DNA from: Nostoc sp. PCC 7120 = FACHB-418
Lineage (GTDB): Bacteria; Cyanobacteriota; Cyanobacteriia; Cyanobacteriales; Nostocaceae
Assembly (NCBI RefSeq): GCF_000009705.1
Contig: NC_003272.1
Span: 4,320,001-4,352,000, forward strand
Direction of reading: 5' to 3'
Length of the DNA: 32,000 nt
The translations under genes and the position numbers were made by a program. The notes below the pieces were generated by a model. That model made no database searches, was not told where the DNA came from, and worked only from the letters and a program-made list of their open reading frames with translations. Below are positions 9,120 to 30,643 of the stretch, in pieces. Numbering within the stretch: position 1 is the first letter of the stretch; every line of letters starts with the position of its first letter.

Positions 9120-9216
9120 GTTAAGTATATACGCGTATACTGCTAGTCTTCATGCTGACATAATAAAACTTTTCTGCCAGCTTTTACTTAAAACCGCAAT
9201 TTCATGGGTAAGTTTT

Positions 9217-10290: not shown

Positions 10291-10311
10291 CAACTAACAA
10301 TTGACAACCGA

Positions 10312-11148: not shown

Positions 11149-11417
11149 AATTTACTCCTAAAAATTTGAGTTTTAGCAAATTGGAAGATTTTTTATTTAA
11201 ATAAATTAAATAAATCTCTACTACAAAAGCAGCATTCTCAATCTACCAGCTATTCTTTTCTTCTTGCTCTAACTTTGGGATTGAAAATATGGATAAAAAT
11301 TGTATATGTCAACCTATATCTTTAGGATGATGAATCCCAATTGATTACGTTGCTAATGATGAAAATATTTATAGATGAATCAGATTAATTTTCTCGGAAA
11401 AATTTAAGTATCCGTAA

Positions 11418-13564: not shown

Positions 13565-14540
13565 TGATCTATACAAAAAAACCTGATTCTATCAAAATAA
13601 TTCTTTTTGAATGAACCTTGCAAATACTCTACATCCCTCAGCGTAAAAAAAATAAAATGGCAAAAAACTAAGAACCACCCACAAGGAAGGTATTAAACTT
13701 TGCTCAGGAACATTTTTAAATCTCAGCTACTGGTCTATCAAATTAGTTTTGACGGTTCGTAGTCAGAATTTTAGTCATGATTTTTTTAAGACTAAAATCC
13801 TTACTAAAAACTTGCTGATCCCTCAATTCAAATTATATGACCTACTAAATTGCTCTTTTTTCAGTATTTACCACAGGTTGTATTGTTCCTCTAAGGCAAT
13901 AGTCTTTGGTAAAACAGGGGAATATACTAGTACTTGTGATACATAACAGCCCGGCTCAATAATGCTTAAACTCTTAATAGCTAAATTTTACATTTTTAAG
14001 TATTTTCTCGGAAGCAACCTCTCTGGTATAAAAGTTAAATTCTAGATGCAGTTGACATAGGAGGAAATTTTCTCTGAAAAACAAGCATTAAAGGAAATCA
14101 AGCACCGTTTTTGTAGATGATTTTAAAATGTGTGACCAAGTTATAGTTACCAAAACAAGAAAATTATCTAGTAGTAAGTATTTTCTTTTTCTAATCTCGT
14201 CTTCAATAGCAAAAATAAAACTTAAATCTAATTAATGTAAAGATAAAACAGCTTATCGTGCTGAACTAATCGATATATTTTTACCATTAATTCCAAACAC
14301 AAAAGCAACCGAAATATCCTTGTTTTGTTGCTAACATTCTACTGGGAAAATTAAAATTTTCAGCAGTTATCAGTAGATTAAACTACCAATTTTAAAATTT
14401 CGCTTCCCAACGGCTTTCAGGTTCTTCATGCAACCAGGCAGAAATTTGGCAAAAAGAAGAACAAATAGTGTTAAACCGCCACCAAAATACTTTACAGCCT
14501 TTGCAGTTGTTGAGTTGCTAATAATAAAAGGTAGATAGCT

Positions 14541-17267
14541 ATGGGAACCTACAACGGTACCACACCATTCCCCGATCCGGGCAGTAGCACATCAACCGCC
14601 CTAGACACTGGACTCTTGATTGGAGGCTCGCTCCTCAGCACACCAAGCTTATTTCAAGATAACCTCAGCCGTCTCATTCCATCTGATCTATCTGATTACT
14701 ACAGATTCACTCTTAGCAGTTCCAGCATAGTCACCCTGGAACTGGATGGATTAACAGATAACGTAAATTTATTTTTGCGAAACAGTGCTGGTAGTTCCCT
14801 TGCGGCTTCCAGTAATGCTGGAACTACGGCAGAGAGAATTCGTTTTAGCATTTCTGACCCACCAGATAACCCATTTTACGCACACGCTTTTATCCCCTCT
14901 GGTTCAATTTCCACCCCTTATGATCTTCGGCTTTCCGCAGAAGTTATTCAGCAAAACAATATAAACGACAATACAATAGCTAATGCTAGAAATATTGGTA
15001 CATTTAACACCACTACTAGCATTACTCCCGTAACTGATTATGTTAGTGGTTCAGGTCAAGTTATAGATCAAAACGACTACTATAGTTTCACATTAACCAA
15101 CAGTGGAACAGTTGACATCAACTTAAACAGTCTGAATGGTACAGATACTCTCTATGCTGATCTTCAACTTATAAGTAGTTCCAACTCAGTTATTCAAACT
15201 AGCGCCACTGTTGGAACATCATTAGAATCAATAAGTCGTAGTCTTGCAGCTGGTACATACTATATCCGGGCCTATTCTCAGTCAGATCCCGGTAACTATA
15301 ATTTAGAGTTTAACTTTAGCGCCGATCCACCAGATGCTGGGGGAAACACATCTGATACTTCTACCCCAATTAACCTACCCGCAACCTTTTCAGAGATAAT
15401 TTCGGATCAAGTTAGTCTCGGAGATTCTAGCGACTATTATCAGTTCACTCTAGCTTCAGCATCCCTGGTAGAGATCCAATTCACATCCCTGACAGCAGAT
15501 GCAAATTTATATCTTCAAACCCAAAATGGTGGTAACATTCTCAGTTCAACTCAGCCAGGAACAGCCTTAGATGCCGTTCGGTTGAGTTTGAATGCTGGTA
15601 CTTACAATATTTTAGTTAATCGGGGTTCTACAGAAACTGCACAATATACCTTGAGTGGTTTTGCTCAAGCAATAGGAAATGATCAAGCACCCAACAGTAC
15701 AACATTAGCGCTGAATCTGAACTTAAATAGTCCTATTTCTCTCAATGAATTTGTAGGCAATATAGATACTAACGATTACTATAAATTCACAGTAAATGGG
15801 ACTACAGAAATCAATCTTGATCTAAGTATTTTGAATAGCTATTTATTAGATCCACAACTAGTTAATGCAGATGTGCAAATACTTAACTCTGGTGGTACAC
15901 AAGTAGCTATATCTAACCAAACTGGAAATAGCAACGAAAGCATCAACACCATATTAGGTGCTGGTACTTACTTTATTCGTGTCTATACTTCTGGTTTAGC
16001 TAATACATTCTATGATTTGAATATCACAGCCCAGTCCCAAGCTCTCTTAGTTCAAGATATTAATCCTACTGGTAATTCCGATCCTGCAAACCTTACCACA
16101 TTAGGCAACACACTGTATTTCACAGCTAATGATGGTATAAATGGTGTGCAGCTATGGAGCAGTAACGGTGATATAACTACTCGTTTGAGTAATATCAGTA
16201 GCTTTAACCCTACTAATCTGATAGTTTTCAACAATAGGTTGTATTTCGCTGCTAGTAATGACACTTTCGGTAGAGAACTGTGGGAATATAACGGTACTAC
16301 AGTCAACAGAATTAGTGACATTAATGTTGGTGCTGGCAATTCTAATCCTGGTAATTTAACTGTCGCTGGAAACAAACTTTTCTTTACAGCCGTTGATAAT
16401 GATAGCATCAGGAAACTATGGGTTTATAATGGCACAAACGTTAATTTAGTAGATGTTAACGCAAGTTTTTCTAATAGTAGTACACCCACTTTTACTACTA
16501 CTTTTAATAATCAACTCTTCTTCACAGCCCAAAACAATAGTCAACTTTGGTCAACCGATGGAACTATCGGTGGTACACAGGTTATAAGTGCAGGGGGAAT
16601 AACAAAATCAACTCCTCGTAACTTGACAGTTGTTGGTAATACTCTATATTTCACCGCCAACAATGGCACGAGTGGACATGAAATATGGCAGTATCAAAAC
16701 GGCACTACAGCCAGCCTCTTGGAGGATATTACCCCAGGTAATAATTCTTTTGCCCCTAGTTCTCTGACGGCCGTTGGTAATACCTTATATTTTGTCACAG
16801 ATAGCGACAATGACTTTAATTTGGAACTGTGGAAGAGTGATGGTACTGCGGCTGGAACCGATATTATTGGAACCGATGGACAGGCACCCAACTTGGGTCT
16901 AGGTTCCTTTTCTTTAACTGCTGTGGACAACACGCTCTATTTTGTAGCAAATGATCCGATTTCTGGTTTAGAACTCTGGAAAACAGATGGTACATTTGCC
17001 AACACAGCAGTAGTGAGAAATATCTCAAGTGGTGCTGCTGACAGTCTTCCCACTGGCCTCGTCAACTTCAATGGTACTCTCGCTTTTGCCGCTTCAGATG
17101 GTATCAATCGAGAGGTGTGGTTCAGTAACGGCACAGAGCTAAATACACGCAAGGTTAGCAACATTAACCCTACAGGAAATGCTAACCCTGCTTCGCTCAC
17201 TGTCGTTGGTACGAAACTGTTCTTCACCGCTAACGGGGCTAACGGCACGGAATTATACGTAATTTAA
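14541..17267 (+). CDS. Large repeat protein with four PPC-like (pre-peptidase C-terminal) modules followed by about nine ELWxxDGT-type repeats
   Basis: Four ~115-aa modules each carry DYY[RSQK]FT[LV] and a distal AGTY[YNF]I[RL] motif (roughly 14541-16046). They are followed by ~45-aa units NLTxxGNxLYFxAxD...ELWxxDGT (roughly 16047-17264). No Cys and no obvious N-terminal signal peptide. Confidence 0.85.
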   Translation: MGTYNGTTPFPDPGSSTSTALDTGLLIGGSLLSTPSLFQDNLSRLIPSDLSDYYRFTLSSSSIVTLELDGLTDNVNLFLRNSAGSSLAASSNAGTTAERIRFSISDPPDNPFYAHAFIPSGSISTPYDLRLSAEVIQQNNINDNTIANARNIGTFNTTTSITPVTDYVSGSGQVIDQNDYYSFTLTNSGTVDINLNSLNGTDTLYADLQLISSSNSVIQTSATVGTSLESISRSLAAGTYYIRAYSQSDPGNYNLEFNFSADPPDAGGNTSDTSTPINLPATFSEIISDQVSLGDSSDYYQFTLASASLVEIQFTSLTADANLYLQTQNGGNILSSTQPGTALDAVRLSLNAGTYNILVNRGSTETAQYTLSGFAQAIGNDQAPNSTTLALNLNLNSPISLNEFVGNIDTNDYYKFTVNGTTEINLDLSILNSYLLDPQLVNADVQILNSGGTQVAISNQTGNSNESINTILGAGTYFIRVYTSGLANTFYDLNITAQSQALLVQDINPTGNSDPANLTTLGNTLYFTANDGINGVQLWSSNGDITTRLSNISSFNPTNLIVFNNRLYFAASNDTFGRELWEYNGTTVNRISDINVGAGNSNPGNLTVAGNKLFFTAVDNDSIRKLWVYNGTNVNLVDVNASFSNSSTPTFTTTFNNQLFFTAQNNSQLWSTDGTIGGTQVISAGGITKSTPRNLTVVGNTLYFTANNGTSGHEIWQYQNGTTASLLEDITPGNNSFAPSSLTAVGNTLYFVTDSDNDFNLELWKSDGTAAGTDIIGTDGQAPNLGLGSFSLTAVDNTLYFVANDPISGLELWKTDGTFANTAVVRNISSGAADSLPTGLVNFNGTLAFAASDGINREVWFSNGTELNTRKVSNINPTGNANPASLTVVGTKLFFTANGANGTELYVI

Positions 17268-17441: not shown

Positions 17442-18047
17442 ATGAAGAACAAATTTTTAGCTCTAGCCGCTTTTGGTGCTGCTGCTTTAGGTACTGCAAT
17501 TGTTTCTGCTCCTGCTCACGCACAAATTCCTCAAGGTAGTGGTCCACAGAGCAATATTACCGTTAACGTATCCGTTCCCGAAATTCTGTATCTGAGAACA
17601 ATTACAGATATTGATTTAACAATCGATGCTGCTGATTTGACCGGTGCTACATTAAACGCAGTAGCAGGAAGCAACCCTCCTGCTTTTACTGGAACTCAGA
17701 ATCTTGAAGATGGTGCTGGTCTAGTTGATACTAATTCTCCATTTGCTGGAGGATTTGCAGATGGTGTCCCTGTCGTAAAAACCATTCCCAGTGCCTACGT
17801 TGTTTGGTCTAATTCTCCTACAGGGAACTACCAAGTACAAGTAACAACACCTGGTGGTGGACTTGTTGGACCTGGTGGTGGAGTAGTTAACGTTGCAGTT
17901 AACGGCGCTAATCCATCTACACAGACTGCTCAAGGTTTAATTAATGCCACTGCTCAAAATATTTTATTAGACCTAGCGGCTGCAAGTGGCACCATCTCTG
18001 CTGGGACTTACACAGGCAACATCACAGTTGAAGCTTTTAGACCGTAG
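17442..18047 (+). CDS. Secreted pilin/fimbrial-subunit-like protein A (201 aa)
   Basis: GGGAGA lies upstream of the ATG, and the signal peptide ends AHA/Q. The mature protein is G/T/N/V-rich and Cys-free. It has an alternating-hydrophobic N-terminal segment (NITVNVSV) and a C-terminal GTYTGNITVEAF strand. Confidence 0.7.
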   Translation: MKNKFLALAAFGAAALGTAIVSAPAHAQIPQGSGPQSNITVNVSVPEILYLRTITDIDLTIDAADLTGATLNAVAGSNPPAFTGTQNLEDGAGLVDTNSPFAGGFADGVPVVKTIPSAYVVWSNSPTGNYQVQVTTPGGGLVGPGGGVVNVAVNGANPSTQTAQGLINATAQNILLDLAAASGTISAGTYTGNITVEAFRP

Positions 18048-18074
18048 TCTATTGATTTTTTCCTTAATGACATT

Positions 18075-18195
18075 AGGAGAAATAAACTGCCTCAAACCTC
18101 GCAAGTAAAAAGCAGATTTATCTCCTATTGCCTATACGATTCAGTTTACTGATTAGCTTTCTGAATCAATGCTTTAACCCCCTGAAACATGGGGG
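18075..18195 (+). other. Three consecutive stem-loops in the 329-nt spacer after subunit gene A, possibly an attenuator or RNA-processing region
   Basis: AGGAGAAATAAACTGC/GCAGATTTATCTCCT (18075-18126), GATTCAG/CTGAATC (18138-18167), and CCCCC/GGGGG (18178-18195). Confidence 0.35.
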
Positions 18196-18376
18196 CTATC
18201 TTCCCTACTACATTTTTGAGGCAGTAGTTTCCTATCTTTATTAAGATTGAGTTTCTTTTATTCTACCGCCGCATATCTCGACAATGTATAAAGTTTTGAC
18301 ATAACACATTGTCCAATTAGTAAAGTCGGGAAATAAATATTACTCTACATGGCTATGAGGTGGATAATTTACAATT

Positions 18377-18940
18377 ATGTCATGGCATGAAATCAAGCAT
18401 TACAAAAATTATCTGTTCAGTTGTTTTGGCTTGAGTGCAGCGATCCTACTCTGGTCTCAGACTCCCACACAAGCACAATTTACCTCGAATCTCGAACCCA
18501 TAGAAATTTACGAATTATCTACTCCTCAAACACTGACCATTCCTCCCATAGGATATTCAGAAATTTCTCTGACAACTAAAAGTGATTCCGTCAGCAATCA
18601 AGGAGATTTATTAGCGCCTCCTAATTTTAATGCTTTTGTAATTCGAGAATTTCCTGCGGTGTGGCAGATGCGTGTTCCCATAGATCAAGTTGATTCTCTT
18701 TACGCCACTTATGAGATGAAAGGTGAGAATGGTAGAACTAATGCTGTTAGTAATGAACAGCGTTCTGATTCTGCTGTGCAAGTCATCTTAGAACCTCTAC
18801 CTATTATGGAGATTTCCCGTGATCTCAATAGTAATACTGCACTGGTACAAGGCGGATTGCGCTTAAGAATGGACATTTCTAATGCTCAGTTTGCTGGCAA
18901 TTACGCTGGGGAATTAACAGTATTAGTAGAGCGTCGTTAA
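18377..18940 (+). CDS. Secreted pilin/fimbrial-subunit-like protein B (187 aa)
   Basis: The signal peptide ends TQA/Q. The mature protein is Cys-free, and its C-terminus AGNYAGELTVLVERR parallels that of subunit A. Confidence 0.6.
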   Translation: MSWHEIKHYKNYLFSCFGLSAAILLWSQTPTQAQFTSNLEPIEIYELSTPQTLTIPPIGYSEISLTTKSDSVSNQGDLLAPPNFNAFVIREFPAVWQMRVPIDQVDSLYATYEMKGENGRTNAVSNEQRSDSAVQVILEPLPIMEISRDLNSNTALVQGGLRLRMDISNAQFAGNYAGELTVLVERR

Positions 18941-19008
18941 TTTCTAGCAATTAAATTTCCCAAAAAAGTGATGTTATAGTCTGTTTGCAAGTGAAGAGAT
19001 TAAATCAA

Positions 19009-19950
19009 ATGTTACCAAAATTAAAAAATATTACCCTGGGTTTAATGGGAGCATTAGCTCTAGGTTTACAACCTGCAAATGCAGTGAATCTTGGTGTCAC
19101 ACCATCCAAATTTCATGTAGATATTACTAGTAAAAAAACAAGCTCTCAGGCAATTCGCATTTTAAACTTTGATACCAAGCCAGTCGAACTGAAAGTTTAT
19201 GTGCAGTCGTGGACGATGACTGAACAAAATAAATTACAAATCATTCCTGCTGAGGAACAGTCATTAGAACAATGGATTGTTTTTACTCCCTCTCGATTTA
19301 CAATTCCCCCTCGTGGTTCTCAAACTGTTCGCTTTGCGGTTCGTCCTAGAGTTAAACCTAGATCTGGTGAACATAGAGCGATTCTTTTTGTGGAAGAAGT
19401 GCCAAGACGTGATAGTACTGCCGCCAATAAAGGTGTAAATTTAATTGGTAAATTAGGGATAGCGATTTACGGATATACCGGAGATATTAAGCGAGTTGGT
19501 GTGTTGAATGCTGTCAAAGTAGAAACTAAGCCAAAGGCGCTTAATGCCGTATTTGATATTTCTAGCCAGGGTAACGGATATGTGAATATGCAAGGTCAAT
19601 ACACTATTTGGCCGGCGGCTCAATATCCTGGTGCAGAAGCTACCCAACCCATAGCTAATATAGGTAAACCAGAAACAAAAATACCTGAGCCTGTGGTACA
19701 TGCAGGATTATTACCTTCAACACCTGTATTACCTGATAGTCGTCGCCAAGTTTTATTACCCATTAAAAAGGATTTACCACCCGGTAAATATGTGTTGGAT
19801 ATCAAGGGAGATTTGAATGGCGTAGCGATTAAAAAAGGCATACCATTTACAGTGCCAGAAAATAATCCAGTTGCTACTAATCGTCCTCGGATTCAACCTA
19901 CATCTGAGCAACTCAGAAATTCACTGAGAAATTCTCAACAACGCAGATAG
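19009..19950 (+). CDS. PapD-like periplasmic pilus chaperone (two Ig-like domains) with a basic C-terminal tail
   Basis: Signal peptide MLPKLKNITLGLMGALALGLQPANA/V. The N-domain pattern ...IRILNFDTKPVELKVYVQSW...IVFTPSRFTIPPRGSQTVRFAVRP...GEHRAILFVEEVP mirrors the PapD/FimC pattern (xNxxxxPxLVQSW...xxPPLFRLxPxxxQxLRI...DRESLFxLNxxEIP). Confidence 0.7.
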   Translation: MLPKLKNITLGLMGALALGLQPANAVNLGVTPSKFHVDITSKKTSSQAIRILNFDTKPVELKVYVQSWTMTEQNKLQIIPAEEQSLEQWIVFTPSRFTIPPRGSQTVRFAVRPRVKPRSGEHRAILFVEEVPRRDSTAANKGVNLIGKLGIAIYGYTGDIKRVGVLNAVKVETKPKALNAVFDISSQGNGYVNMQGQYTIWPAAQYPGAEATQPIANIGKPETKIPEPVVHAGLLPSTPVLPDSRRQVLLPIKKDLPPGKYVLDIKGDLNGVAIKKGIPFTVPENNPVATNRPRIQPTSEQLRNSLRNSQQRR

Positions 19951-20049
19951 CTTTTGCTTACTTAAAAGCTAGTTTTGATTCTTCCCAAAATCATTTTGTA
20001 ATCGGGAAGCTTTTTAGGCTACCTATACGAATTTTTGTGCTTTAGTTTT

Positions 20050-23000
20050 ATGTTCTACCAACCTGCAACACCTCCCCAGATAGTTCCAATTTTACAGCCT
20101 GAAAGTAGCTCTTGTAAGGCGTTATCAGATGTTAGTGTCAATAATGAAAATAAAGTAGTTTTCGGAAACATACCAACACCCAGTCCACCAGAAACATTAG
20201 CACCTGAATTTTCTGATGGTGGGTTACAGAATATTTGTTATGAAGGGGGACTGAACAAAAATATAAAATGGCAGCATATTAATGCCAGTATTGCAATAAC
20301 TGAAAATCCTGTAGATAAGAATCTCCTAGAAGTATCCAACAAGAAAATAAGTCAGTCCAATTATTTAGAAAAACCACAAAAAATCTTTATTAAAAAACAG
20401 GATAATAGGGATTTACCTACCTTGGAAAACGTAGGTCTAGAGGATACGAACATAGCTCAAAATAATGTTGTAATTCCTCAAGAATATAAAAATAGCAAAA
20501 ATAATACGGGAAGGGTAATTCCTGCTGAAGAAAAGCAGGCTTTAAGTGATGTTAATTTAATTGCTCAAGACCCTAAAGCTTCAAGTGAAAAAAATAATCC
20601 ACAAACAAATGCGCCAGCACCAATAGATAATATTTTAGCAAATGCTAAAACTTTGTTGGTGGCAGTATTTGTCAATGAGCGTGAAATCGGTACTTTAGAA
20701 GTCATACCAGAAAACAATAGCTTACTTATTCCCCTTGAGGATTTTGCTCAAATTACTGGTTTAGAACTAGAAAAAAATAATGAGATAATTCAACTCAAGA
20801 CACCATTAGGTGTGATAAATATTACAGAGACTGATGTAAGAAAAATTGATGGTGTTACTTATATTAGTGAACTGTTTTTAAAAGAAAGATTACTAACAAA
20901 TCTAGAACTAAAAACAACAGACTTAGCTTTAAATGTTGATTTACCTTGGTTGAGACGTAGTCAGTCTAATAACCAAGCTATTGATCTACAACCAGAAGTG
21001 AAAGCTCCTAGCAGTGGTTTATCTAGCTTAAGGCAAGAATTAGGTTATTACAACAATTCTGGCAGAACTAATTGGCGAAGTTCTACACTTTTAGGTGGAC
21101 GTTTAGCAGGTGGGGCGTGGCGTTTACGGTTAGATAATAATTTTGTTGACAGACCTGATTTAACTGAATATTTTTTCTTTAAACGCTCAGGGCGAATGCT
21201 TTATCAATTAGGTCGCCAACAAATTTCACTAGGTCCTTTATTCAGTGGGGTAAATTTTACTGGAGCGCAAGTTGGTTACACAAATCTTCCGGCAGATAGA
21301 TTTAATACAAATTTCAGTGCTAGTGAACTTTTACCCAGGCGTTCTCAACCTGTACAAACATTTCGTGGGGTAGTTTCTCCTGCTAGTTTTGTTCAGTTAA
21401 GAGTGAGTGGAATTATTGTTGCTCAACAACAGGTAGGATTAAGTGGTGAATACGAATTTTTAGATATTAATTTACCTAGTAGCCAAAGCAGCGATATTGA
21501 ACTTTTGGTATTTGACCGGAATAATCTAGGTGTACCTATTGAAATTCGTTCTTTAAGGCTGAATGCTTCTGATTTATTACTACCAGCCGGTGGGAATGTG
21601 CAGATAGCAGGTTTAGGTTTAACTGGTAACTGGATACAAAATAATTTATTTGATGATTTTAGCGCTCCGGAGGTTGGTAGGTTTACTGGTTTTTATCAGG
21701 TGCGTCAAGGTCTTTCTGACAACTTTAGTGTGGAAGGCTCTGTACAATTATTACCTGAGACAACGCAAGCACAAGCAGGTTTTGCTTGGCGTTTAGCACC
21801 GCCGGTAATTCTTTCTGCAAACGTGGGAACTTCTCGCGGTGAGTTAGGTTATGCAGCGAATTTAGATGTGAAGTTAGAGCGCTGGCAGATTTTGGGAACT
21901 TCTGAATTTTATCCACAAGGTTATTTCTATAGAAATCAATTTCTTGATCGTCAAAATCACAGTATAGATGTTAAGCATAGCTTTAGTAACAACTTTGAAT
22001 TAGGAGTAATCGCCAGAAGTTTCAGCAATCAAAGTAATTCCAATAACTATATTTTGCCAACTTTTGCCTTCCGCCCATTGCCTAACTTATCTTTAAGAGG
22101 TTCCCCAGATTATTTTGGTCGCTATTCATTGAATGCTTTTTATAGACCAACAAATAACACTAGACTATCTTTTAATTCTTTAGGTGATATCTATACAACA
22201 AATTTTGGCTATAACTTTAGCCAACAGTATTTGTTATCTTTTGGTACTGAATCTGGTGCTGATTTACCGACTCGCTACACTTTGATATTGAATCGTAGTG
22301 CTTCTAGTCTTTCTGGGTTGAGTTGGCGCTTGGGCTTGGGATATAGAGATGGGGAAGTAGGCCCAGTTGTCGGTGCTAGTATGCGGATATTGCCAGGGTT
22401 ACTCGCATCTATTGATTATCAAGGTATTCCCTCTAGAAATAGAAACATTTTTGGTAGTATTGGTGACGATCGCCTGACTATATCACTCATATCAGACTTA
22501 TCTTTCGCGGGTGGCAGAGTTACACCATCTCAATATAGCTCCATCAATAAAGATAGAGGTGCGATCGCTGGCAGAATAGTGGTAGAAGGTGGCAGAGATG
22601 GTACAGACCTTAGTGGTGGCCTAGTCCAAGTCTTCAATAACCGAGGTCGCAGTGTTGGCGGTGCAAGAATTGACTCTCAAGGTAACTTCTTTGTGGGTAA
22701 TTTGCGAGAAGGTAATTACATAGTGCAGCTTGACCCAGATGAGTTACCAATAGAAGTTTCCCTGCGAAAAACTTCCATTGTGGCTGAAGTCGCAGGTGCA
22801 GCTGTAACTCAGTTAGATTTCCCCGTCAGATTAGAGTATGGTGTGGCAGGTAGAATTACTGATATATCAGGTCAACCAATGTCAGAAGTCGAAGTAGAAC
22901 TAATTGACGTTGAAGGTAAACAAGTTACTACAGCCATGACTGACCAATTTGGTCTTTACCGGATAGATGGTCTACCTGTGGGTAAATACACCCTGCGCGT

Positions 23001-23151
23001 TCCCAAACAAGTAAACGTAACTAATAGTGAAGATCTCCCGCAACTAGAAGTAGCAATTAGTAAAGATTTCATCTACGACCAAAATCTACGCTTACCAATT
23101 TCCGCAGCAGTTAAGCAAATACCCAATGATTTAAATATTCCCAAACCTTAG
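20050..23151 (+). CDS. Usher-like outer-membrane assembly protein with a ~200-aa low-complexity N-terminal extension and two C-terminal CarboxypepD_reg-like domains
   Basis: PapC_N-like segment LLVAVFVNEREIGTLEVIPENNSLLIPLEDFAQITGLEL (about 20647-20949). Long amphipathic beta-strand region. Plug-like segment FRGVVSPASFVQLRVSGIIVAQQQVGLSGEYEFLDINLPSSQSSDIELLVFDRNNLGVPIEI (about 21352-21564). C-terminal GRIVVEGG...GNYIVQL and GRITDISGQPMSEVEVELID...GLYRIDGLPVGKYTLRV (about 22558-23094). The start is uncertain (TTG at 20035 or ATG at 20050). Confidence 0.65.
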   Translation: MFYQPATPPQIVPILQPESSSCKALSDVSVNNENKVVFGNIPTPSPPETLAPEFSDGGLQNICYEGGLNKNIKWQHINASIAITENPVDKNLLEVSNKKISQSNYLEKPQKIFIKKQDNRDLPTLENVGLEDTNIAQNNVVIPQEYKNSKNNTGRVIPAEEKQALSDVNLIAQDPKASSEKNNPQTNAPAPIDNILANAKTLLVAVFVNEREIGTLEVIPENNSLLIPLEDFAQITGLELEKNNEIIQLKTPLGVINITETDVRKIDGVTYISELFLKERLLTNLELKTTDLALNVDLPWLRRSQSNNQAIDLQPEVKAPSSGLSSLRQELGYYNNSGRTNWRSSTLLGGRLAGGAWRLRLDNNFVDRPDLTEYFFFKRSGRMLYQLGRQQISLGPLFSGVNFTGAQVGYTNLPADRFNTNFSASELLPRRSQPVQTFRGVVSPASFVQLRVSGIIVAQQQVGLSGEYEFLDINLPSSQSSDIELLVFDRNNLGVPIEIRSLRLNASDLLLPAGGNVQIAGLGLTGNWIQNNLFDDFSAPEVGRFTGFYQVRQGLSDNFSVEGSVQLLPETTQAQAGFAWRLAPPVILSANVGTSRGELGYAANLDVKLERWQILGTSEFYPQGYFYRNQFLDRQNHSIDVKHSFSNNFELGVIARSFSNQSNSNNYILPTFAFRPLPNLSLRGSPDYFGRYSLNAFYRPTNNTRLSFNSLGDIYTTNFGYNFSQQYLLSFGTESGADLPTRYTLILNRSASSLSGLSWRLGLGYRDGEVGPVVGASMRILPGLLASIDYQGIPSRNRNIFGSIGDDRLTISLISDLSFAGGRVTPSQYSSINKDRGAIAGRIVVEGGRDGTDLSGGLVQVFNNRGRSVGGARIDSQGNFFVGNLREGNYIVQLDPDELPIEVSLRKTSIVAEVAGAAVTQLDFPVRLEYGVAGRITDISGQPMSEVEVELIDVEGKQVTTAMTDQFGLYRIDGLPVGKYTLRVPKQVNVTNSEDLPQLEVAISKDFIYDQNLRLPISAAVKQIPNDLNIPKP

Positions 23152-23263
23152 AGATTAGGCATTGAGAACCGGGGATTAGGGCTATTGACTAATGCCCCAT
23201 TTCATCTACGATATGAATTGTTCTCCCCTTCAATGGGCTGCATCAGGTTAGCCTGTGATCGCC

Positions 23264-25474
23264 ATGCCTAAATCAAAAAAAAGCTCTAATTCTATCAACT
23301 TAAACGATCCTCAATACTATCTTAACCGAGAGTTAAGCTGGTTAGAATTCAATAACCGAGTTTTACATGAAGCTTGTGACTCGCGCACACCACTATTAGA
23401 AAGACTTAAATTTTTAGCAATTTTTAGTTCTAACTTGGATGAGTTTTTCATGGTGCGGGTTGCAGCATTGAAACAACAGGTAGAAGCAAAGGTTAGCCAG
23501 TTAACCCCCGATGGGCGGACACCTCAACAACAGCTAAATGATATTCGGCTGAATCTCATACCCCAAGTTACCAAACAACATCAACATTGTGAACAAATAA
23601 TTCGCCCGTTGTTAGCTAGTCATGGTATCCATATTTTGGATTATATTAACTTGACTCAAAAACAACGCAGTTATCTAGATAATTACTTTGAAGACCAAAT
23701 TTTCCCAGTTCTGACACCCCTAGCTGTTGACCCTAGCCATCCATTTCCCTATATTTCTAATCTCAGCTTGAATTTAGCTGTTGTGGTGAAAAACCCCGAC
23801 ACAGAAGAAGAATTTTTTGCCAGAGTCAAAGTTCCTAGCGTTCTTCCTAGATTTTTGCCATTACCGCCAGAGTTAGCATTTCAGGAGAACGGACAAGCAG
23901 CTAACTGGGTAGGTGTACCATTAGAACAGGCGATCGCTCATAATCTAGATTCCCTATTTCCAGGGATGAATATCCAAGAATATCACCCCTTCCGCATTAC
24001 CCGCGATGCTGACCTCGCCCTCGAAGAAGATGAAGCTGATGATTTATTATTAGCGATAGAACAAGAACTGCGAAAACGCCGCATGGGTGGTTCTCCAGTC
24101 AGAATCGAAATTCAATCCCAAACCCCACAAGCAATACGCATCAGGTTATTACAAGACCTAGACTTAACAGAACAAGATGTCTACGAGGTAGAGGGACTGT
24201 TAGGATTGCGTGACTTAATGTCATTTATGGCTTTACCATTACCAGAACTCAAAGATCCACCACGCCAATCTGTAGTAGTTCCCCGTCTACAACGGTTGGG
24301 AGAACCAAGCGTAGACCCAAATGCTTTAGAGTTGGAAGATGGTAAAGATTTCTTTTCTGTAATTCGAGAAAAAGATTTATTCGTACACCATCCTTACCAA
24401 TCTTTTTCTGCTACGGTTGTACGCTTCATTACCCATGCAGCCCATGACCCGAATGTTTTAGCAATTAAGATGACACTGTACCGGACTTCGGGAGATTCGC
24501 CCATCGTCAATGCCTTGATTGCGGCGGCAGAAAATGGTAAACAAGTGTCAGTCTTGGTAGAACTTAAAGCCCGATTTGATGAAGAAAATAATATTTATTG
24601 GGCTAGACGATTAGAAAGAGTTGGAGTTCACGTCGTCTATGGTTTAGTGGGTCTAAAAACTCACTGCAAAACTGTGATGGTAGTAAGGCGAGAAAAAGAC
24701 CGGATGCGCCGCTATGTGCATATTGGAACCGGCAACTACAACCCAAAAACGGCACGACTCTATACAGATATAGGCTTATTTACTTGTCGTGAAGAATTAG
24801 GTGCTGACATCACCGATTTATTTAATTTTTTGACAGGGTATTCACGACAAAAGTCTTATCGAGAATTGTTGGTTGCGCCTGTAAATATGCGCGATCGCTT
24901 TTTGGAATTAATCCGCAGGGAAATCACCAACGTCCAGAATGGATTCTCTGGTCGCATAGTAGCAAAAATGAATTCCCTTGTTGATCCCCAAATTATTACC
25001 ACCTTATATGAAGCTTCCAGCGCGGGAGTACAAATCGATTTAATTATTCGGGGCATTTGCTGTTTGCGTCCAGGGATTAAAGATATCAGTGACAATATTC
25101 GCATTATCAGCATTATCGGCCGCTTTTTAGAACACTCCCGTATCTATTATTTCCATAACAATGGACAAGAAGAAATTTTTATTGGTAGTGCCGATTGGAT
25201 GAGCCGTAACTTAGATCGGCGAGTAGAAGTAATTACCCCCATAAAAGACCCAGATATTGCCAAGGATTTGCAAGAAATCTTGGGAATTTTGCTGGCTGAT
25301 AATCGTCAAGCTTGGGATTTACAAGCTGATGGTAGTTACATTCAACGCCTTCCAGGAGAAAATTGTCCAGAAACTAACTCACAGAAAACTCTCATGAATA
25401 TGGCTTTACGTTCAACGGGAATCGCTACAAACCTGATCGATTCACCAAAAAGTTCTGCATATAAAGACAATTAA
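23264..25474 (+). CDS. ppk: Polyphosphate kinase 1
   Basis: YYLNRELSWLEFNNRVLHEA at the N-terminus, DEFFMVRV, and two PLD-like HxK motifs (LKTHCKTVMVVRRE and FLEHSRIYYF). The ATG is at 23264; the track start at 23255 is GTG. Confidence 0.95.
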   Translation: MPKSKKSSNSINLNDPQYYLNRELSWLEFNNRVLHEACDSRTPLLERLKFLAIFSSNLDEFFMVRVAALKQQVEAKVSQLTPDGRTPQQQLNDIRLNLIPQVTKQHQHCEQIIRPLLASHGIHILDYINLTQKQRSYLDNYFEDQIFPVLTPLAVDPSHPFPYISNLSLNLAVVVKNPDTEEEFFARVKVPSVLPRFLPLPPELAFQENGQAANWVGVPLEQAIAHNLDSLFPGMNIQEYHPFRITRDADLALEEDEADDLLLAIEQELRKRRMGGSPVRIEIQSQTPQAIRIRLLQDLDLTEQDVYEVEGLLGLRDLMSFMALPLPELKDPPRQSVVVPRLQRLGEPSVDPNALELEDGKDFFSVIREKDLFVHHPYQSFSATVVRFITHAAHDPNVLAIKMTLYRTSGDSPIVNALIAAAENGKQVSVLVELKARFDEENNIYWARRLERVGVHVVYGLVGLKTHCKTVMVVRREKDRMRRYVHIGTGNYNPKTARLYTDIGLFTCREELGADITDLFNFLTGYSRQKSYRELLVAPVNMRDRFLELIRREITNVQNGFSGRIVAKMNSLVDPQIITTLYEASSAGVQIDLIIRGICCLRPGIKDISDNIRIISIIGRFLEHSRIYYFHNNGQEEIFIGSADWMSRNLDRRVEVITPIKDPDIAKDLQEILGILLADNRQAWDLQADGSYIQRLPGENCPETNSQKTLMNMALRSTGIATNLIDSPKSSAYKDN

Positions 25475-25626: not shown

Positions 25627-26043
25627 ATGTTAATGTTCTCTTGTGAGTCCTCTACCTTAAAGGTTCTAGTGGTTGACGATCATGAACTGACTCGTTTAAC
25701 CTTGCAATTAGCCTTTTCTAGTCAGGAAAATATCCAAGTAGTCGGTCTAGCCAGTAATGGTCAAGAAGCGATAGAAATGGTGAGAGACAGTCATCCTGAT
25801 GTCATTGTTCTAGACTTACAAATGCCAGTCATGGACGGTTGGAGCGCTTCTGGTCATATTAAAGCCATTTCCCCTAACACGCAAATACTAGCTTATTCGT
25901 CAGTAGAGGATACAAATCTTCCTGACACAAAGATAACTTCTAACTTTGATGATGTTTGTAAAAAAGATGTGCCTACCAAGGAACTTATTGCTTTGGTAAG
26001 AGAATTGGGAAGACGTGGGGGGGATAGTTCCATTTCCAAATAA
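25627..26043 (+). CDS. Stand-alone CheY-like response regulator receiver protein
   Basis: VLVVDDHELTR, phospho-acceptor context DVIVLDLQMPVMDG, and no output domain. Confidence 0.85.
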   Translation: MLMFSCESSTLKVLVVDDHELTRLTLQLAFSSQENIQVVGLASNGQEAIEMVRDSHPDVIVLDLQMPVMDGWSASGHIKAISPNTQILAYSSVEDTNLPDTKITSNFDDVCKKDVPTKELIALVRELGRRGGDSSISK

Positions 26044-26163
26044 ATGCCTTAGCTACGTCGCTTAACTAAATCGGTATATTTGAAGATGGGGACTTGAAGA
26101 AATTTTATCATTCAGAAGCGTCGGTAAAATCGTTATTTGACGGTCAGACCGACGCAATTTTAT

Positions 26164-26346
26164 TTAATTGTTACCTGTTTCGGGAATAGTGCGTCTATAT
26201 TCTTCAATCAATTCGTCCAATTCTTCCAACGCTTGATTAACATCAACTCTTAAAATGCCTAGATTCGGTTGTTCTAGAAGGCTGAGTAAGTACTCACGTT
26301 TACTTTGAACTGCTGTAATTCTTTCTTTGAGAGTTGGCAAATCCAT
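26164..26346 (-). CDS. Small hypothetical helical protein (60 aa)
   Basis: ATG with AGGA 11 nt upstream and coiled-coil-like composition. No family recognised. Confidence 0.45.
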   Translation of the reverse strand: MDLPTLKERITAVQSKREYLLSLLEQPNLGILRVDVNQALEELDELIEEYRRTIPETGNN

Positions 26347-26514
26347 TATTTTTGTATCCTAAAATCGGCTTCAAATTTAAAGTTAACTCAAAAAAGGCTC
26401 GTTATGTAGCTGGCATAAGAGAGAAAATCAAGGGTTTGAGCAGCGACTCTTCCCTAAGTTGTCACTCATAACAGATGATAATAAAACTAATGTGTTAAGA
26501 ATTTATACTATCTC

Positions 26515-27093
26515 ATGTTACGCCAAATCTCTTTGGGAACAATTGGTTTAAGCATCGGCAGCATATTAACCATCATGGGGTTTGTTGCCTATGCTGCAAA
26601 TAATGCCACACTAAACCTGGTCGGATTCTTTTATGGGTTTCCTTTACTTTTAGGAGGACTAGCTCTCAAGGCTAACGAACTCAAGCCCATATCTTTTAGC
26701 CAGACGACAAAAGAGTCAGTGTTACTCTTGCGCCAACAGCAAGCGACTGTGACCCAAAATAAAATCCGTAAAGATATCACTCGATATTGTTACGGACAGA
26801 ATGCTCACTTAGATGGAGCGCTGTCTTACTTAGGTTTAAGTCCTTCAGATGAAGACAGACCCATAGTTACAGGTCTACGGGAAACAGAAACTAATGGTGC
26901 TTATACCCTAATTTTGGAATTTGACTCGCCTGAAATACCATTCAGTGATTGGCAACAAAAGCAAGAAAAAATGACTAAGTACTTTGGGCCAGGAGTTGAG
27001 ATAAAAATTACTCAAGTGGATGAAGATAAAATCGAATTAGCCCTGATTACTCTTAGTCAAGAGCCAATAGCTCAAAGTATCGCCAATAACTAA
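26515..27093 (+). CDS. Conserved membrane protein with two N-terminal TM helices and a soluble C-terminal domain, possibly DUF2854
   Basis: GTIGLSIGSILTIMGFVAYA and LVGFFYGFPLLLGGLALK helices. The family name is recalled from memory and not verified. Confidence 0.6.
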   Translation: MLRQISLGTIGLSIGSILTIMGFVAYAANNATLNLVGFFYGFPLLLGGLALKANELKPISFSQTTKESVLLLRQQQATVTQNKIRKDITRYCYGQNAHLDGALSYLGLSPSDEDRPIVTGLRETETNGAYTLILEFDSPEIPFSDWQQKQEKMTKYFGPGVEIKITQVDEDKIELALITLSQEPIAQSIANN

Positions 27094-27105
27094 ATAATTA
27101 AAAAC

Positions 27106-27366
27106 TTACTTTTCTAGCCGCACTGCGTACCATTGTAAATATTTTCCCGCGCCTACATCTAACTCACAACTGGTATCGATCAAGTGTTGGGCTTGGGCTG
27201 GCAAAGAATCTAATTTTTGTAGCTCAAGGGGTAAATCCGAAAAACTAATTTTTTCTAATTCCCCCTTGAGCTTTTCTAGTAATTCTATTGTGGTGAGAAA
27301 CTGTTCCGGTTGGTTGGTTTCTAAGACAACAAAGTTATCCTGTTGATACATTAACGGATCTGGCAT
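27106..27366 (-). CDS. CRR7-like small protein (chlororespiratory reduction 7 / NDH-1 assembly-associated family)
   Basis: MPDPLMYQQDNFVVLETNQPEQFL...CELDVGAGKYLQWYAVRLEK matches my recollection of the cyanobacterial CRR7/DUF3571 pattern. The CDS itself is convincing; the family name is less certain. Confidence 0.6.
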   Translation of the reverse strand: MPDPLMYQQDNFVVLETNQPEQFLTTIELLEKLKGELEKISFSDLPLELQKLDSLPAQAQHLIDTSCELDVGAGKYLQWYAVRLEK

Positions 27367-28227
27367 TGCAAGGATGCTCTAAGTTACTTCAAGGGATTCT
27401 ACTAAGATAAATGAGATTTTTATAAAAATCTATCACAATGTTGTCGTTCATCTAGATGTATGTAAAAAGTAACTTTTGTAGTGTGTGATCAGTTTTTAAA
27501 ATCCAGATATCTTCAGCAACTAGGTATGCCGATCTCTCGACTTTATAGTATATTTACTTATATTTTAAATATAAAAATATATTTTTATATCCGTTTGTCA
27601 ACAGGAATCTTACTTAATTAAGTAGCTGATTAATAACAGTAATAACTTATTGTGTTAATAGCTTGATAATAAACTTATATAATCTAAGTAATTTTCTTGA
27701 ATACCCACTATTGTCAAGCTTTCAGGATGTTTTCAATCGCTGCAACTTAAGTGAGAGCAGTCCTGGGTTTGGGAAATATTTCCCTTGTAATTTGGCGATT
27801 CATATATTGTTTTATTTTTTTAAGTTTATATACAAAATAACCCCTGTAGTGAAAAATTGGGGTTCACATTTAAAGTTTTGCTTAATAGAGCAATTACGCT
27901 TTATTAGGAGGGAACTATAACAGTAATATTTCTTATCATGCCTATAAAGAATCCAGTGTAATAAACAACTACCTTTGTTCTGCCATTAAATGTATATCCA
28001 ACCTAGTATTACTCCAGATTCTGGGTTACAAATTATCGAGAAGTCTATAGCTACAACAGATACAGGCTTGCTATCCGTTTCAGTATTGATGAATGCTGTA
28101 CAAACTTTTTTCTACACACTCACCAAGATTTTGCTGAAATTATGACTATAGGTAATTTAACTATGGAGGTGAAGCTTTTCTCTGTTTTTCAGTCCCCAGA
28201 ACTCTGATTTTCTACGGAACGCATCTC

Positions 28228-29262
28228 ATGTCAGGCATAAGCCCATATTCTCTTTCTAAAAAACCTCCCGTAATTTTGGTGGCTGATGATGACAAGACCA
28301 TCCGAATGCTGTTGCGTGAAGCTATGGAAAAAGAAGGCTATCGAGTGGTAGAGGTTACAGATGGTAAACAGTGTCTAGACGCTTATGAGGCTGTTAAACC
28401 AGATATAGTGTTGCTAGATGCTATGATGCCTGTAATGGATGGTTTTACGTGCTGTAAACAATTACTACAAATTGCTAGAAATAATCTAATTACCGCGTTG
28501 GCAAATTTAGATACTGATTCTGGCTTAGGAAATACGGTGATATCTAGATTGTGGGAACGTACACCTATCCTGATGATCACTAGTTTAAATGATGCAGAAT
28601 CTGTTGATCGTGCTTTTGAAGCTGGCGCAACTGATTATATTACTAAGCCAATTCATTGGGCTGTGTTGCGCCAACGCTTACGAAGATTACTACAGCAAGC
28701 ACAAGTGTATAAACAGTTAGAAGCTGCGAACATGGCCTTACAGCACTTAGCCAATGTGGATGGTTTAACTGGATTAGCTAATCGCCGCCGCTTTGATAAT
28801 TATTTAAATACGCAGTGGATTAACTTGGTACAGGAAGGCGCTCCCTTGTCTTTGATTTTGTGTGATATTGATTATTTTAAATTTTATAATGACCAGTACG
28901 GACATCCGACTGGGGATATTTGTTTACAAAAAGTAGGTGCGGTTTTAAGCTACAAGGCTCAGAAACACCAGGATTTAGTTGCCCGTTATGGTGGGGAAGA
29001 ATTTGCCGTGGTTATGCCATACACTCATGCAAAAGGAGCGATTTATGTTGCCCATGCCATACAAACCAGTGTCAGAGATTTGCAAATTGCCCACGATAAA
29101 TCTGCTGTGAGTCAACATATTACTCTCAGCATGGGTGTTGCGACTATAACTCCTACCTGGGAATCTTCACCTTCTGATTTGATTGCGGCGGCAGATAAAG
29201 CACTTTATAAAGCTAAGGAATCAGGACGGAACCGTATTTGTCAATGGGAAGATAGTCAATAG
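28228..29262 (+). CDS. Response regulator with a receiver domain and a GGDEF diguanylate cyclase domain
   Basis: VILVADDD, DIVLLDAMMPVMDG and TKP in the receiver; DGLTGLANRRRFD and RYGGEEF in the cyclase domain. Confidence 0.92.
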   Translation: MSGISPYSLSKKPPVILVADDDKTIRMLLREAMEKEGYRVVEVTDGKQCLDAYEAVKPDIVLLDAMMPVMDGFTCCKQLLQIARNNLITALANLDTDSGLGNTVISRLWERTPILMITSLNDAESVDRAFEAGATDYITKPIHWAVLRQRLRRLLQQAQVYKQLEAANMALQHLANVDGLTGLANRRRFDNYLNTQWINLVQEGAPLSLILCDIDYFKFYNDQYGHPTGDICLQKVGAVLSYKAQKHQDLVARYGGEEFAVVMPYTHAKGAIYVAHAIQTSVRDLQIAHDKSAVSQHITLSMGVATITPTWESSPSDLIAAADKALYKAKESGRNRICQWEDSQ

Positions 29263-29285
29263 TTTTCTTTTCCCCTTGCGCCCTA

Positions 29286-29312
29286 CCAGTCCCCAGTCGC
29301 CAATCCCCAATC
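29286..29312. repeat. STRR-like heptamer run (CCAGTCCCCAGTCGCCAATCCCCAATC) in the 51-nt gap between convergent genes
   Basis: Degenerate CCCCAGT/CCCCAAT units lie between the GGDEF stop (29262) and the sasA stop (29314). Confidence 0.6.
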
Positions 29313-29313
29313 T

Positions 29314-30501
29314 CTAAGATGGATAAACGGGTAACGTGAAGTGGAACCACGCTCCACCGTGGGGGTTGGAGTCTACCCAAATTTGACCATAGTGGGCGCG
29401 TATTATGCGTTGGCATAAAGAAAGACCGATACCGTAGCCTTCTTTGGCTTCATCTCGTTCTAAGCGATAGTGGTTTTCAAATATACGCTCTCGATTGTCG
29501 CTGGGAATACCGGGGCCGGTATCGCCAATGCTAAATTGGACTTTTTGGGTAGTACGGTGTAGTCCAGCAATACTAATTGTGCCGCCTTCTGGAGTATATT
29601 TTATAGCATTATCTAGCAGATTTATCAGTACTTGGCGGATGCGTTCGGGGTCGGCATAGACACAGGGCAAATCTTGGGGAATGTCTGTTTCTACTTTTTG
29701 CGCTTTGGTGGTATAGCGATCGCGCAATTCTCCTAGTACTTCTAAACAGAGTAACCCTATTTCCGTTTTTTGTGGTATAATAATTAGCTCGGTATCAGTA
29801 CCGCGACCCACTTGTAAAAGATCCGCAATCATTTTATCAATTGTTTTAGCTTGAGTGCGGGCTTGTCTTAATAGGTTGACTACTAAGGCGGGTTTTAAGC
29901 GTTGAAATTGGCCGATATCTGGGTTGTAGTTAGATTGTAGGGTTTCGATAGCGATCGCTGCTGCTGTGAGGGGATTGCGGAGGTCATGAACTAACATGGC
30001 AATTACGCGGTCTTTAAACTGTAACTGCTCTAGTAGTTTTTCTTTCTCTTGTTTGAGATTGAATATTTCGTCTGAAAGCCGTAACAGCTCTGCCGAAACA
30101 GCGACAGAATTGATAGTTGATTGAGGTTGTGCCACCCGGCCATTATCATCTACACGTTCTTGCAAGTCCTCTTGCAACTTTGCATAGGTATCTGCTGCTG
30201 CTTGCCAGCGCGGCCACAAATTTTTCAGTTGGGTGATGATGTTACTACCGGCTAAAATCTGCCTGGGTTCTGGATGAATTTTAATTAGAGCTGGTGTTGC
30301 TACTAACTTAAAATGTTCTGCCAAGTATGGTTGTTGCCCGACATCAATGATTTGAAGTTCAAAGTTATACTCAGCCTGCAAGTCTTTTAAGTAAGCACGG
30401 ATACGCTGCACCTGCTGTTTGGACTTGGGTCGTCCATCGACGAACAATAACAGCTGGAGTGGAGCCTCAGAATAAATAGGCTGATCCTGGGAAACTTGCA
30501 T
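29314..30501 (-). CDS. sasA: Adaptive-response sensory kinase SasA (KaiB-like N-terminal domain plus HisKA/HATPase_c)
   Basis: KaiB/thioredoxin-like [27 protein letters not shown]...[11 protein letters not shown]-box [12 protein letters not shown]-box [10 protein letters not shown], and G-box DTGPGI. The ATG is at 30501; the track start at 30528 is TTG. Confidence 0.92.
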
Positions 30502-30643
30502 GGAATCGTGTTTCAGCACTGGTAACAACCCGGCGACGCTTTGCGGAAATTAGAATAGACTGACAGGTGTCGATGGTCGTTCTTTTTTCAATTTAATATC
30601 TATTTTAGGTTTTTACTACACCTATCCACACAGGGTTTTTGAG

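Follow-up and report, generated by a model that had tools for sequence, protein, structure and literature searches.

A divergent chaperone-usher-like gene cluster in Nostoc sp. PCC 7120 whose usher-like protein lacks a signal peptide

Chaperone-usher (CU) systems have been described in several cyanobacteria. In Synechocystis, the SCPU protein CccS, the PapD_N chaperone CccP and the usher homolog Slr0019 (PF00577) were linked to one another, and syntenic clusters were reported from other cyanobacteria (Schuergers and Wilde 2015, PMC4390875). The same Synechocystis proteins were named AdhA, ChpA and UshA by Chandra et al. 2017 (10.1101/130278), who gave phenotypes, and a knock-out of ushA was reported by Conradi et al. 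2019 (PMC6755745). SCPU-type CU clusters have also been described in Nodularia and Thermosynechococcus. The main genetic model of multicellular cyanobacteria is Nostoc (Anabaena) sp. PCC 7120, whose described surface appendages, in the literature searched, were type IV pili. Here we analyse four genes, alr3589, alr3590, alr3591 and alr3592, which lie in a 32,000-nucleotide stretch of its genome (contig NC_003272.1, positions 4,320,001–4,352,000 of the forward strand; hereafter the window, to which all positions refer unless another locus is named). They likely encode a CU machine that assembles a surface fibre and that belongs to a sequence-divergent clade.

An earlier note on this DNA had reported four co-oriented open reading frames (ORFs) at 17442–23151, and their coordinates, sizes, quoted motifs and signal peptides were confirmed. 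Its account of what was already known needed correction. The Synechocystis usher, which it had given as undefined, has a candidate, slr0019/ushA, a gene already named and knocked out. The degree of novelty that it claimed was also too high in view of the published cyanobacterial CU clusters, the published usher candidate and the fimbrial chaperone name in use at NCBI. Cyanobacterial CU systems as such are already published; the novelty lies in a divergent CU variant, overlooked by censuses based on hidden Markov models (HMMs), that occurs in a model organism and that has an usher without a signal peptide. The public name of alr3591 is fimbria-pilus periplasmic chaperone, and the NCBI name of its homologs is fimbrial biogenesis chaperone. 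Literature searches pairing usher with carboxypeptidase regulatory-like found nothing, and those for PapD in Nostoc found nothing relevant. Among the locus tags used here, alr3591 was named directly by the source record (as a 319-aa version), and the others were assigned from consecutive BAB accessions.

Predicted domains and folds of the four proteins

Alr3591 matched the Pfam family PapD_N (PF00345) with 30.6 bits, above the gathering cut-off of 23, and the match aligned residues 41–144 with model positions 12–109 of 126. The same family was matched in 41 of 42 diverse chaperone homologs (best E = 2.4e-10), so that the PapD-like nature proposed for this 313-aa protein was borne out. The N-domain (41–144) was followed by a larger, unclassified second domain (approximately residues 160–290), which was also conserved. 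N-terminal hydrophobic segments consistent with signal peptides were present in Alr3589, Alr3590 and Alr3591, ending in AHA/Q, TQA/Q and ANA/V, respectively. The mature forms of these three proteins contained no cysteine. The claim that the mature parts of all components are free of cysteine therefore held for both subunits and the chaperone, but not for Alr3592, in which Cys22 and Cys63 occur in the N-terminal extension.

The invariant residues of Alr3591 were P94, within ..FTPSRF.., R108, within the ..QTVRFAVRP.. strand, R112 and E121. In the second domain, Y206 and Y261 were invariant, as read from the alignment. Classical chaperones have Arg8 and Lys112 as anchors; by motif comparison, the equivalent of Lys112 in the G1 motif of Alr3591 appeared to be Glu (..FVEEVP..). 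The chaperone motif GEHRAILFVEEVP gives a hint, at the level of sequence, toward a donor-strand role. One proline is the only residue that is invariant throughout the chaperone superfamily (PMC4654587), and P94 was taken as its putative counterpart. Archaic chaperones have a non-classical carboxylate anchor composed of an Arg in strand F of domain 1 and a Tyr/Arg pair in domain 2 (R89, Y196 and R174 in CsuC; PMC4654587).

Alr3592 was modelled with AlphaFold2 (AF2) from a 78-sequence family alignment. The mean predicted local distance difference test score (pLDDT) was 72.8, with values of 85–94 in the folded parts. In a Foldseek search against the PDB, the top 18 matches of this model were all FimD or PapC (best E = 1.4e-27), with approximately 890 aligned columns that spanned all five usher domains at a sequence identity of 13–16%. 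The target-normalised template modelling score (TM) against barrel-only PapC/FimD entries was approximately 0.57. TonB-dependent receptors, the next class of plugged barrels, reached only 1e-6 to 1e-4. The plug of ushers lies between barrel strands 6 and 7. The usher layout that had been proposed for this protein of about 1030 aa was recovered in the model as an N-domain, six strands, a plug and further strands, with FimD and PapC as top matches. The C-terminus matched the Pfam family CarboxypepD_reg (61.4 bits) in two stretches, as well as SdrD_B and related beta-sandwich models. The model thus gives Alr3592 the fold of an usher, an identity that follows from fold and domain order and not from sequence models.

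All 52 homologs of Alr3589 were named hypothetical, and none of them was assigned to a Pfam or NCBIfam family. The AF2 model of Alr3589 (pLDDT 88.4) pointed to a pilin-like fold: approximately the first 35 Foldseek matches in the PDB were nearly all CU pilins or pilin domains, including the pilin domain of PapG, CfaB, SafA, CsuE, CsuA/B, FimF/G/H and PapE. The family conserved a signal peptide ending in A-x-A/Q. It also conserved alternating hydrophobic residues at the mature N-terminus (..I-T-V-N-V-S-V-P-E-I-L-Y-L-R-T..), a stretch that is a candidate donor strand. Alr3589 had the C-terminal motif AGTYTGNITVEAFRP (family form ..AGTYTG.lTVeA.rP) and Alr3590 the motif AGNYAGELTVLVERR, and a C-terminal AG.Y.G..tV motif was common to both subunits. 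When an alignment of Alr3590, assembled from syntenic loci, was compared with the subunit-1 family (Alr3589 homologs), hhalign gave a probability of 85.6%, limited to the final 32 residues, that is, the last two strands.

Sequence models gave little for the subunits. Pfam had no consistent match for the Alr3590 homologs, SCPU (PF05229) was found in 0 of 47 subunit-1 and 0 of 36 subunit-2 homologs even at E ≤ 1, and Fimbrial (PF00419) had no match in the subunit scans. A DUF4402 assignment for Alr3590 was considered and rejected, as the match was sub-threshold, occurred in 1 of 36 homologs and covered an N-terminal region that included the signal peptide; it was probably due to chance. NCBIfam likewise had no informative match among the four proteins, nor in the subunit-1 family. 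The subunits diverged fastest (19–70% identity, compared with 46–79% for chaperone and usher), as expected of surface-exposed pilins.

Alr3589 is probably the major subunit and Alr3590 the minor one, given that alr3589 opens the cluster and precedes a structured spacer of about 330 nt with a terminator-like hairpin. A terminator-like site lay at 18190–18207, and the spacer contained a CCCCC/GGGGG hairpin with a U-rich tract after it. The region 18045–18260 folded at −51.1 kcal/mol and was more stable than shuffled controls (z = −3.1). The spacer (18048–18376) matched no Rfam family; it could possibly serve as an attenuator that sets the ratio of subunits to assembly machinery.

Variation within the subunit and chaperone families was also observed. 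Subunit 2 of a branch comprising Calothrix, Rivularia and Tolypothrix had a conserved C-terminal pair of cysteines (..VCV......C..) that was absent from the PCC 7120 branch, and a disulfide seems, from these sequences, to have been gained or lost inside this family. WxLIP_PGBD (PF06030), a WxL-interacting domain of Gram-positive surface complexes, was weakly matched by 10 of the 42 chaperone homologs, and one subunit-1 homolog (P0302) was labelled 'WxL domain-containing protein' by UniRef. The WxL matches may indicate that CU-like and WxL surface systems are deeply related, or they may be noise.

Conservation of the module and the usher N-terminus

Genomes were scanned with the chaperone profile and the best 80 loci were retained; the synteny counts refer to these. 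Nearly all were from heterocyst-forming genera, including Nostoc, Anabaena, Trichormus, Cylindrospermum, Fischerella, Calothrix, Rivularia, Tolypothrix, Scytonema and Mastigocoleus, and a few were from metagenome-assembled genomes labelled otherwise. The usher gene directly followed the chaperone gene in 78 of the 80 loci, the two exceptions being contigs that ended soon after the chaperone gene. Directly upstream of the chaperone gene, every locus with enough flanking sequence had two ORFs of approximately 170–220 aa (170–210 aa for the one next to the chaperone gene), and some had three. Three small subunit-like ORFs instead of two were seen in loci L007 and L069, for example, which suggests subunit duplication. 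On the outer flanks, ppk1 was found downstream in 58 loci and alr3588 upstream in 37.

The reach of the usher family was assessed with exhaustive phmmer searches of the N-domain, barrel and plug against 1.84 billion representative proteins. These returned 252 clusters at E ≤ 1e-3, a number so small that the thousands of canonical ushers were not reached. Twenty distant members that were sampled had identities of 24–43% and lengths of approximately 790–1020 aa (mostly 820–880), and a CarboxypepD_reg-type C-terminal domain was present in all 20. Among the sources named for distant members were a 'Cyanobacteria bacterium' genome and Candidatus Vecturithrix. The distant members were also considered as intermediates that might link the family to canonical ushers, but none of the 20 matched PF00577.

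The order small ORF, small ORF, chaperone, usher was found in all four distant non-Nostocales loci. In one of them (L081, 66% GC), the chaperone matched the Nostocales chaperone profile over both domains (hhalign E = 6.7e-41); the EF-Tu encoded on that contig looks gammaproteobacterial. The usher of that locus was followed (8595–11311) by a co-oriented 634-aa PD40-repeat protein and a 271-aa protein without a domain match, which may be extra components in that lineage. The four genes were thus kept as a unit in 78 of the 80 genomes as well as at the four distant loci, in agreement with the co-conservation that the note had expected. They represent a compact and self-consistent clade of CU-like systems that is not confined to cyanobacteria.

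Alr3592 started with a conserved M-F-Y-Q-P..PP sequence that had neither a Sec-type signal peptide nor a hydrophobic core. A start further upstream was excluded by an in-frame stop just upstream of 20035. Of 120 Nostocales-type ushers, 111 had an M[FILV][YFSH] start and 108 had a pair of prolines within the first 15 residues. Among cyanobacterial ushers, 4 of 120 attained a hydropathy of 1.9 over 10 residues, compared with scores of 1.99–2.36 for the three signal peptides in the window. Full-length distant members had a signal-peptide-like N-terminus in 111 of 124 cases, and in the N-termini inspected it was directly followed by the N-domain. In Nostocales-type homologs, a disordered extension of approximately 65 to more than 600 residues preceded the N-domain. 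A second conserved motif, PPETL(A/P)PEFS, was located at about residue 48 of Alr3592, and Cys22 and Cys63 were partly conserved. The conservation of this replacement N-terminus points to selection and not to decay.

Assembly model and alternative explanations

We hypothesize that the machine would work as follows. Alr3589 and Alr3590 would be exported by Sec, and their incomplete immunoglobulin (Ig)-like folds would be capped in the periplasm by Alr3591 through donor-strand complementation. The chaperone-subunit complexes would then dock on Alr3592, the putative usher in the outer membrane, by way of its N-terminal domain. The N-terminal strand of an incoming subunit would oust the chaperone by donor-strand exchange, and the growing Cys-free fibre would be threaded through the plugged barrel. 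A thin fibre would be expected, given the few subunit types, and its role would probably be adhesion or contact between filament and surface or between filaments.

Several results weigh against a CU machine. No paper on alr3589–alr3592 was found in the literature, and no fibre, expression or phenotype was reported for these genes. Phmmer or profile searches of the PDB sequences with all four proteins yielded no CU protein at a significant E; the 78-sequence usher-family profile found no usher, and Alr3591, as a single sequence or as a family profile, found no solved chaperone (best match FaeE, E = 0.88). PapD_C (PF02753) was not matched by any of the 42 chaperone homologs at E ≤ 1. Usher (PF00577), PapC_N (PF13954) and PapC_C (PF13953) had no match in Alr3592 or in approximately 140 homologs, made up of 120 with precomputed domains and the 20 sampled distant members. 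The Foldseek scores of Alr3589 were weak (best E = 2e-3, ranging to 0.1; TM 0.35–0.5), and the usher lacks a signal peptide that would account for its route to the outer membrane. Of the Pfam families that the earlier note had listed for searching, PapD_N and CarboxypepD_reg were accordingly recovered, whereas PapD_C, Usher, PapC_N, PapC_C and SCPU were absent and DUF4402 was at chance level. That note had also named three outcomes that would be damaging, namely no HMM or structural similarity of Alr3591 to chaperones or of Alr3592 to ushers, a fold other than that of an usher, and no co-conservation; each was looked for, and none was found.

The cluster might simply belong to the cyanobacterial archaic (sigma) CU family known from earlier work, and be orthologous to cccS/cccP and ushA (slr0019) and to the SCPU-type clusters. 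Cyanobacterial ushers have been placed in the sigma clade (PMC4654587), and slr0019 homologs are found directly downstream of cccS-cccP-like genes (Schuergers and Wilde, PMC4390875), the same order of subunit, chaperone and usher as observed here. Two members of the present family are named 'outer membrane usher protein FimD/PapC' by the Joint Genome Institute. The C-terminal G.Y.G..tV motif, which would resemble the final strand in subunits of the SCPU and Csu types, was counted on the same side. The domains that define the described family were missing, however: SCPU from all 47 and 36 subunit homologs, and PF00577 from Alr3592, the 120 homologs and the 20 distant members. The usher search, moreover, reached only its 252 clusters and not the canonical ushers, and the SCPU-type clusters of Nodularia and Thermosynechococcus have another gene order. 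No Synechocystis entry was present among the 20 family-cluster proteins looked up. Since not even a weak SCPU or PF00577 signal was found in either subunit family or in the usher family, we consider this orthology unlikely. We regard as quite improbable a variant in which the machinery is of CU type but would produce, by analogy with the Myxococcus spore-coat protein U pathway or the Caf1 capsule, an amorphous or sheet-like surface layer, perhaps in the envelope of specialised Nostocales cells such as akinetes, hormogonia or heterocysts. Non-fimbrial coats can be made by CU pathways (Leng et al. 2011, as cited by later papers). The near restriction of the cluster, among cyanobacteria, to heterocyst-forming lineages would fit such a layer, as would the presence of two subunit genes only and no lectin-domain adhesin. 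Yet the four-gene module also occurs in non-cyanobacterial lineages without such cell types, nothing ties expression of the cluster to differentiation, and alr3589 has no NtcA-type site upstream.

Two further explanations have very little probability. The plugged barrel could be a translocon that exports other cargo instead of polymerising small proteins, for example the exoprotein Alr3588, which is encoded directly upstream in 37 of 80 loci and is found in the exoproteome in spite of having no N-terminal signal peptide. We consider this very unlikely, because 43 of the 80 loci and every distant locus lacked alr3588, whereas the pair of small ORFs and the chaperone gene were never missing, and because the fold match covered all five usher domains. 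Usher pores pass single Ig-like domains, which also speaks against the export of a 908-aa propeller protein. Least credible of all is that the cluster of Nostocales is a remnant, decaying or no longer functional, in which the loss of the signal peptide marks a dead system. The rarity of signal-peptide-like N-termini in cyanobacterial ushers (4 of 120, against 111 of 124 distant members) would agree with decay, but all four ORFs were intact in approximately 80 genomes, usher and chaperone were 46–79% identical with many invariant residues, and the replacement N-terminus was itself conserved (111 and 108 of 120).

A CU machine that assembles a surface fibre remains the reading we prefer. A more specific version of it, which is tentative and which we hold to be possible but doubtful, joins the unusual features together: usher C-terminal domains of CarboxypepD_reg type, an enlarged second chaperone domain and subunits that are free of Cys and belong to no Pfam family, with the usher of heterocystous cyanobacteria reaching the outer membrane without a Sec signal by way of its proline-rich N-terminus and long disordered extension. 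If true, the usher without a signal peptide would mean that an outer-membrane barrel can be targeted by a route not described so far, and an usher branch that has no signal peptide and is strongly conserved nonetheless offers a natural experiment. A second dedicated fibre system would be a candidate behind adhesion, filament-filament contact, biofilm or symbiosis phenotypes, as it is kept at a single chromosomal site throughout the heterocystous cyanobacteria. An entire usher family escapes censuses based on HMMs (PF00577, SCPU) but is recovered by structure prediction.

Genomic context and comparison with known systems

Table 1. Coordinates of the alr3589–alr3592 cluster, its direct neighbours and the predicted domains of Alr3592 (residue numbers with each domain)
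Feature	Position in window	Strand	Size or basis
alr3588	14541–17267	+	908 aa
alr3589, putative major fibre subunit	17442–18047	+	201 aa, BAB75288
Spacer alr3589/alr3590	18048–18376	+	~330 nt, structured RNA and terminator-like hairpin ~18173–18215
alr3590, second small secreted subunit; candidate minor, tip or adaptor subunit	18377–18940	+	187 aa, BAB75289
alr3591, PapD-like periplasmic chaperone	19009–19950	+	313 aa from ATG; 321 aa from TTG at 18985
alr3592, usher-like	20050–23151	+	1033 aa from ATG; 1038 aa from TTG at 20035
Alr3592, disordered N-terminal extension, 1–193	20050–20628	+	low-complexity, length-variable
Alr3592, N-terminal chaperone-subunit docking domain, 200–300	20647–20949	+	AF2 pLDDT ~85–90, Foldseek
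Alr3592, first six barrel strands, 323–411	21016–21282	+	DSSP on AF2 model
Alr3592, six-stranded plug-like domain after barrel strand 6, 435–502	21352–21555	+	AF2 (strands 435–441 to 492–502)
Alr3592, other ~18–20 barrel strands, 516–826	21595–22527	+	AF2; count approximate
Alr3592, two C-terminal beta-sandwiches, CarboxypepD_reg / Cna-B type, 836–1003	22555–23058	+	position of usher C-terminal domains CTD1/CTD2
alr3593 (ppk1)	23255–25474	+	739 aa

Alr3588 contained four pre-peptidase C-terminal (PPC) domains (Pfam PPC, 106 bits) and C-terminal repeats of the ELWxxDG type, and no N-terminal signal peptide was observed. It has been detected in the exoproteome of PCC 7120 (PMC4390845). It is possibly an accessory protein or a mere neighbour, and not a core part of the system. 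The gene downstream of the cluster, alr3593, was identified as ppk1 according to PMC7564538. It is followed by a signalling cluster (25627–30528) with a single-domain response regulator (25627–26043), then a DUF2854 protein, a diguanylate cyclase of the response regulator-GGDEF type (28228–29262) and, on the minus strand, a SasA-like histidine kinase with a KaiB domain (29314–30528). The proximity of an enzyme of cyclic di-GMP (c-di-GMP) metabolism to the putative fibre operon could be meaningful or mere coincidence. At the other end of the window (1425–4058, minus strand), an N-terminal fragment of the DNA polymerase III alpha subunit ended in an intein splicing domain; we take it to be the well-known N-half of the split DnaE intein of Nostoc.

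Scans of the window with Rfam and for tRNAs detected no RNA gene, and a promoter scan gave a count below chance expectation. Neither a CRP-like (cAMP receptor protein) nor an NtcA-type site was found upstream of alr3589, and the counts of such sites across the window were at chance level. An NtcA-like GTA-N8-TAC sequence was present at 14373–14386, upstream of alr3588, where it should be read against that same chance level of such sites.

The tubular pilus of Microcystis aeruginosa (cyanobacterial tubular, CT, pilus; PMC12397347) is a non-type-IV surface fibre whose gene cluster includes an outer-membrane protein proposed to be usher-like, and in this respect it resembles the cluster described here. 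The CT pilus cluster differs in encoding an O-GlcNAc transferase, an FkbM methyltransferase and a pilin of another fold, and the available part of the report (PMC12397347) does not mention a PapD-like chaperone. Kinship with the CT pilus was rejected on gene content, as no O-GlcNAc transferase or FkbM domain was detected in the window ORFs that were scanned.

Type 1 and P pili (FimC/FimD, PapD/PapC) share with the Alr cluster the five-domain order of the usher, the plug after strand 6 and the PapD_N chaperone, and the pilin domains of PapG, FimH, FimG and FimF were among the structural matches of Alr3589. In contrast, the ushers are only 13–16% identical, the Alr subunits have neither PF00419 nor the conserved disulfide, and the cluster has no two-domain lectin adhesin and no PapD_C match. 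CccS (slr1667), CccP (slr1668) and UshA (slr0019) of Synechocystis are alike in combining a small secreted protein, a PapD_N chaperone and an usher candidate. They are set apart by their published domain calls, SCPU and PF00577, neither of which was found in the Alr cluster. The Synechocystis usher gene is also unlinked, and cccS has a CRP site, unlike alr3589.

The archaic (sigma) pili, represented by Csu of A. baumannii, CupE of P. aeruginosa, Mcu of Myxococcus and the SCPU-type clusters of Nodularia and Thermosynechococcus, likewise encode small Sec-exported subunits, a PapD_N chaperone and an usher in one cluster. They have few subunit types and a wide non-enterobacterial spread that includes cyanobacteria, and CsuA/B and CsuE of the archaic Csu system were among the structural matches of Alr3589. 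The Alr cluster differs from them in giving no SCPU, PF00577, PapC_N or PapC_C signal. It is further distinguished by the CarboxypepD_reg / Cna-B type of the C-terminal domains of Alr3592, by the fixed order of subunit, subunit, chaperone and usher, by a chaperone of approximately 310 aa whose second domain is enlarged and lacks PapD_C, and by the Nostocales usher without a signal peptide.

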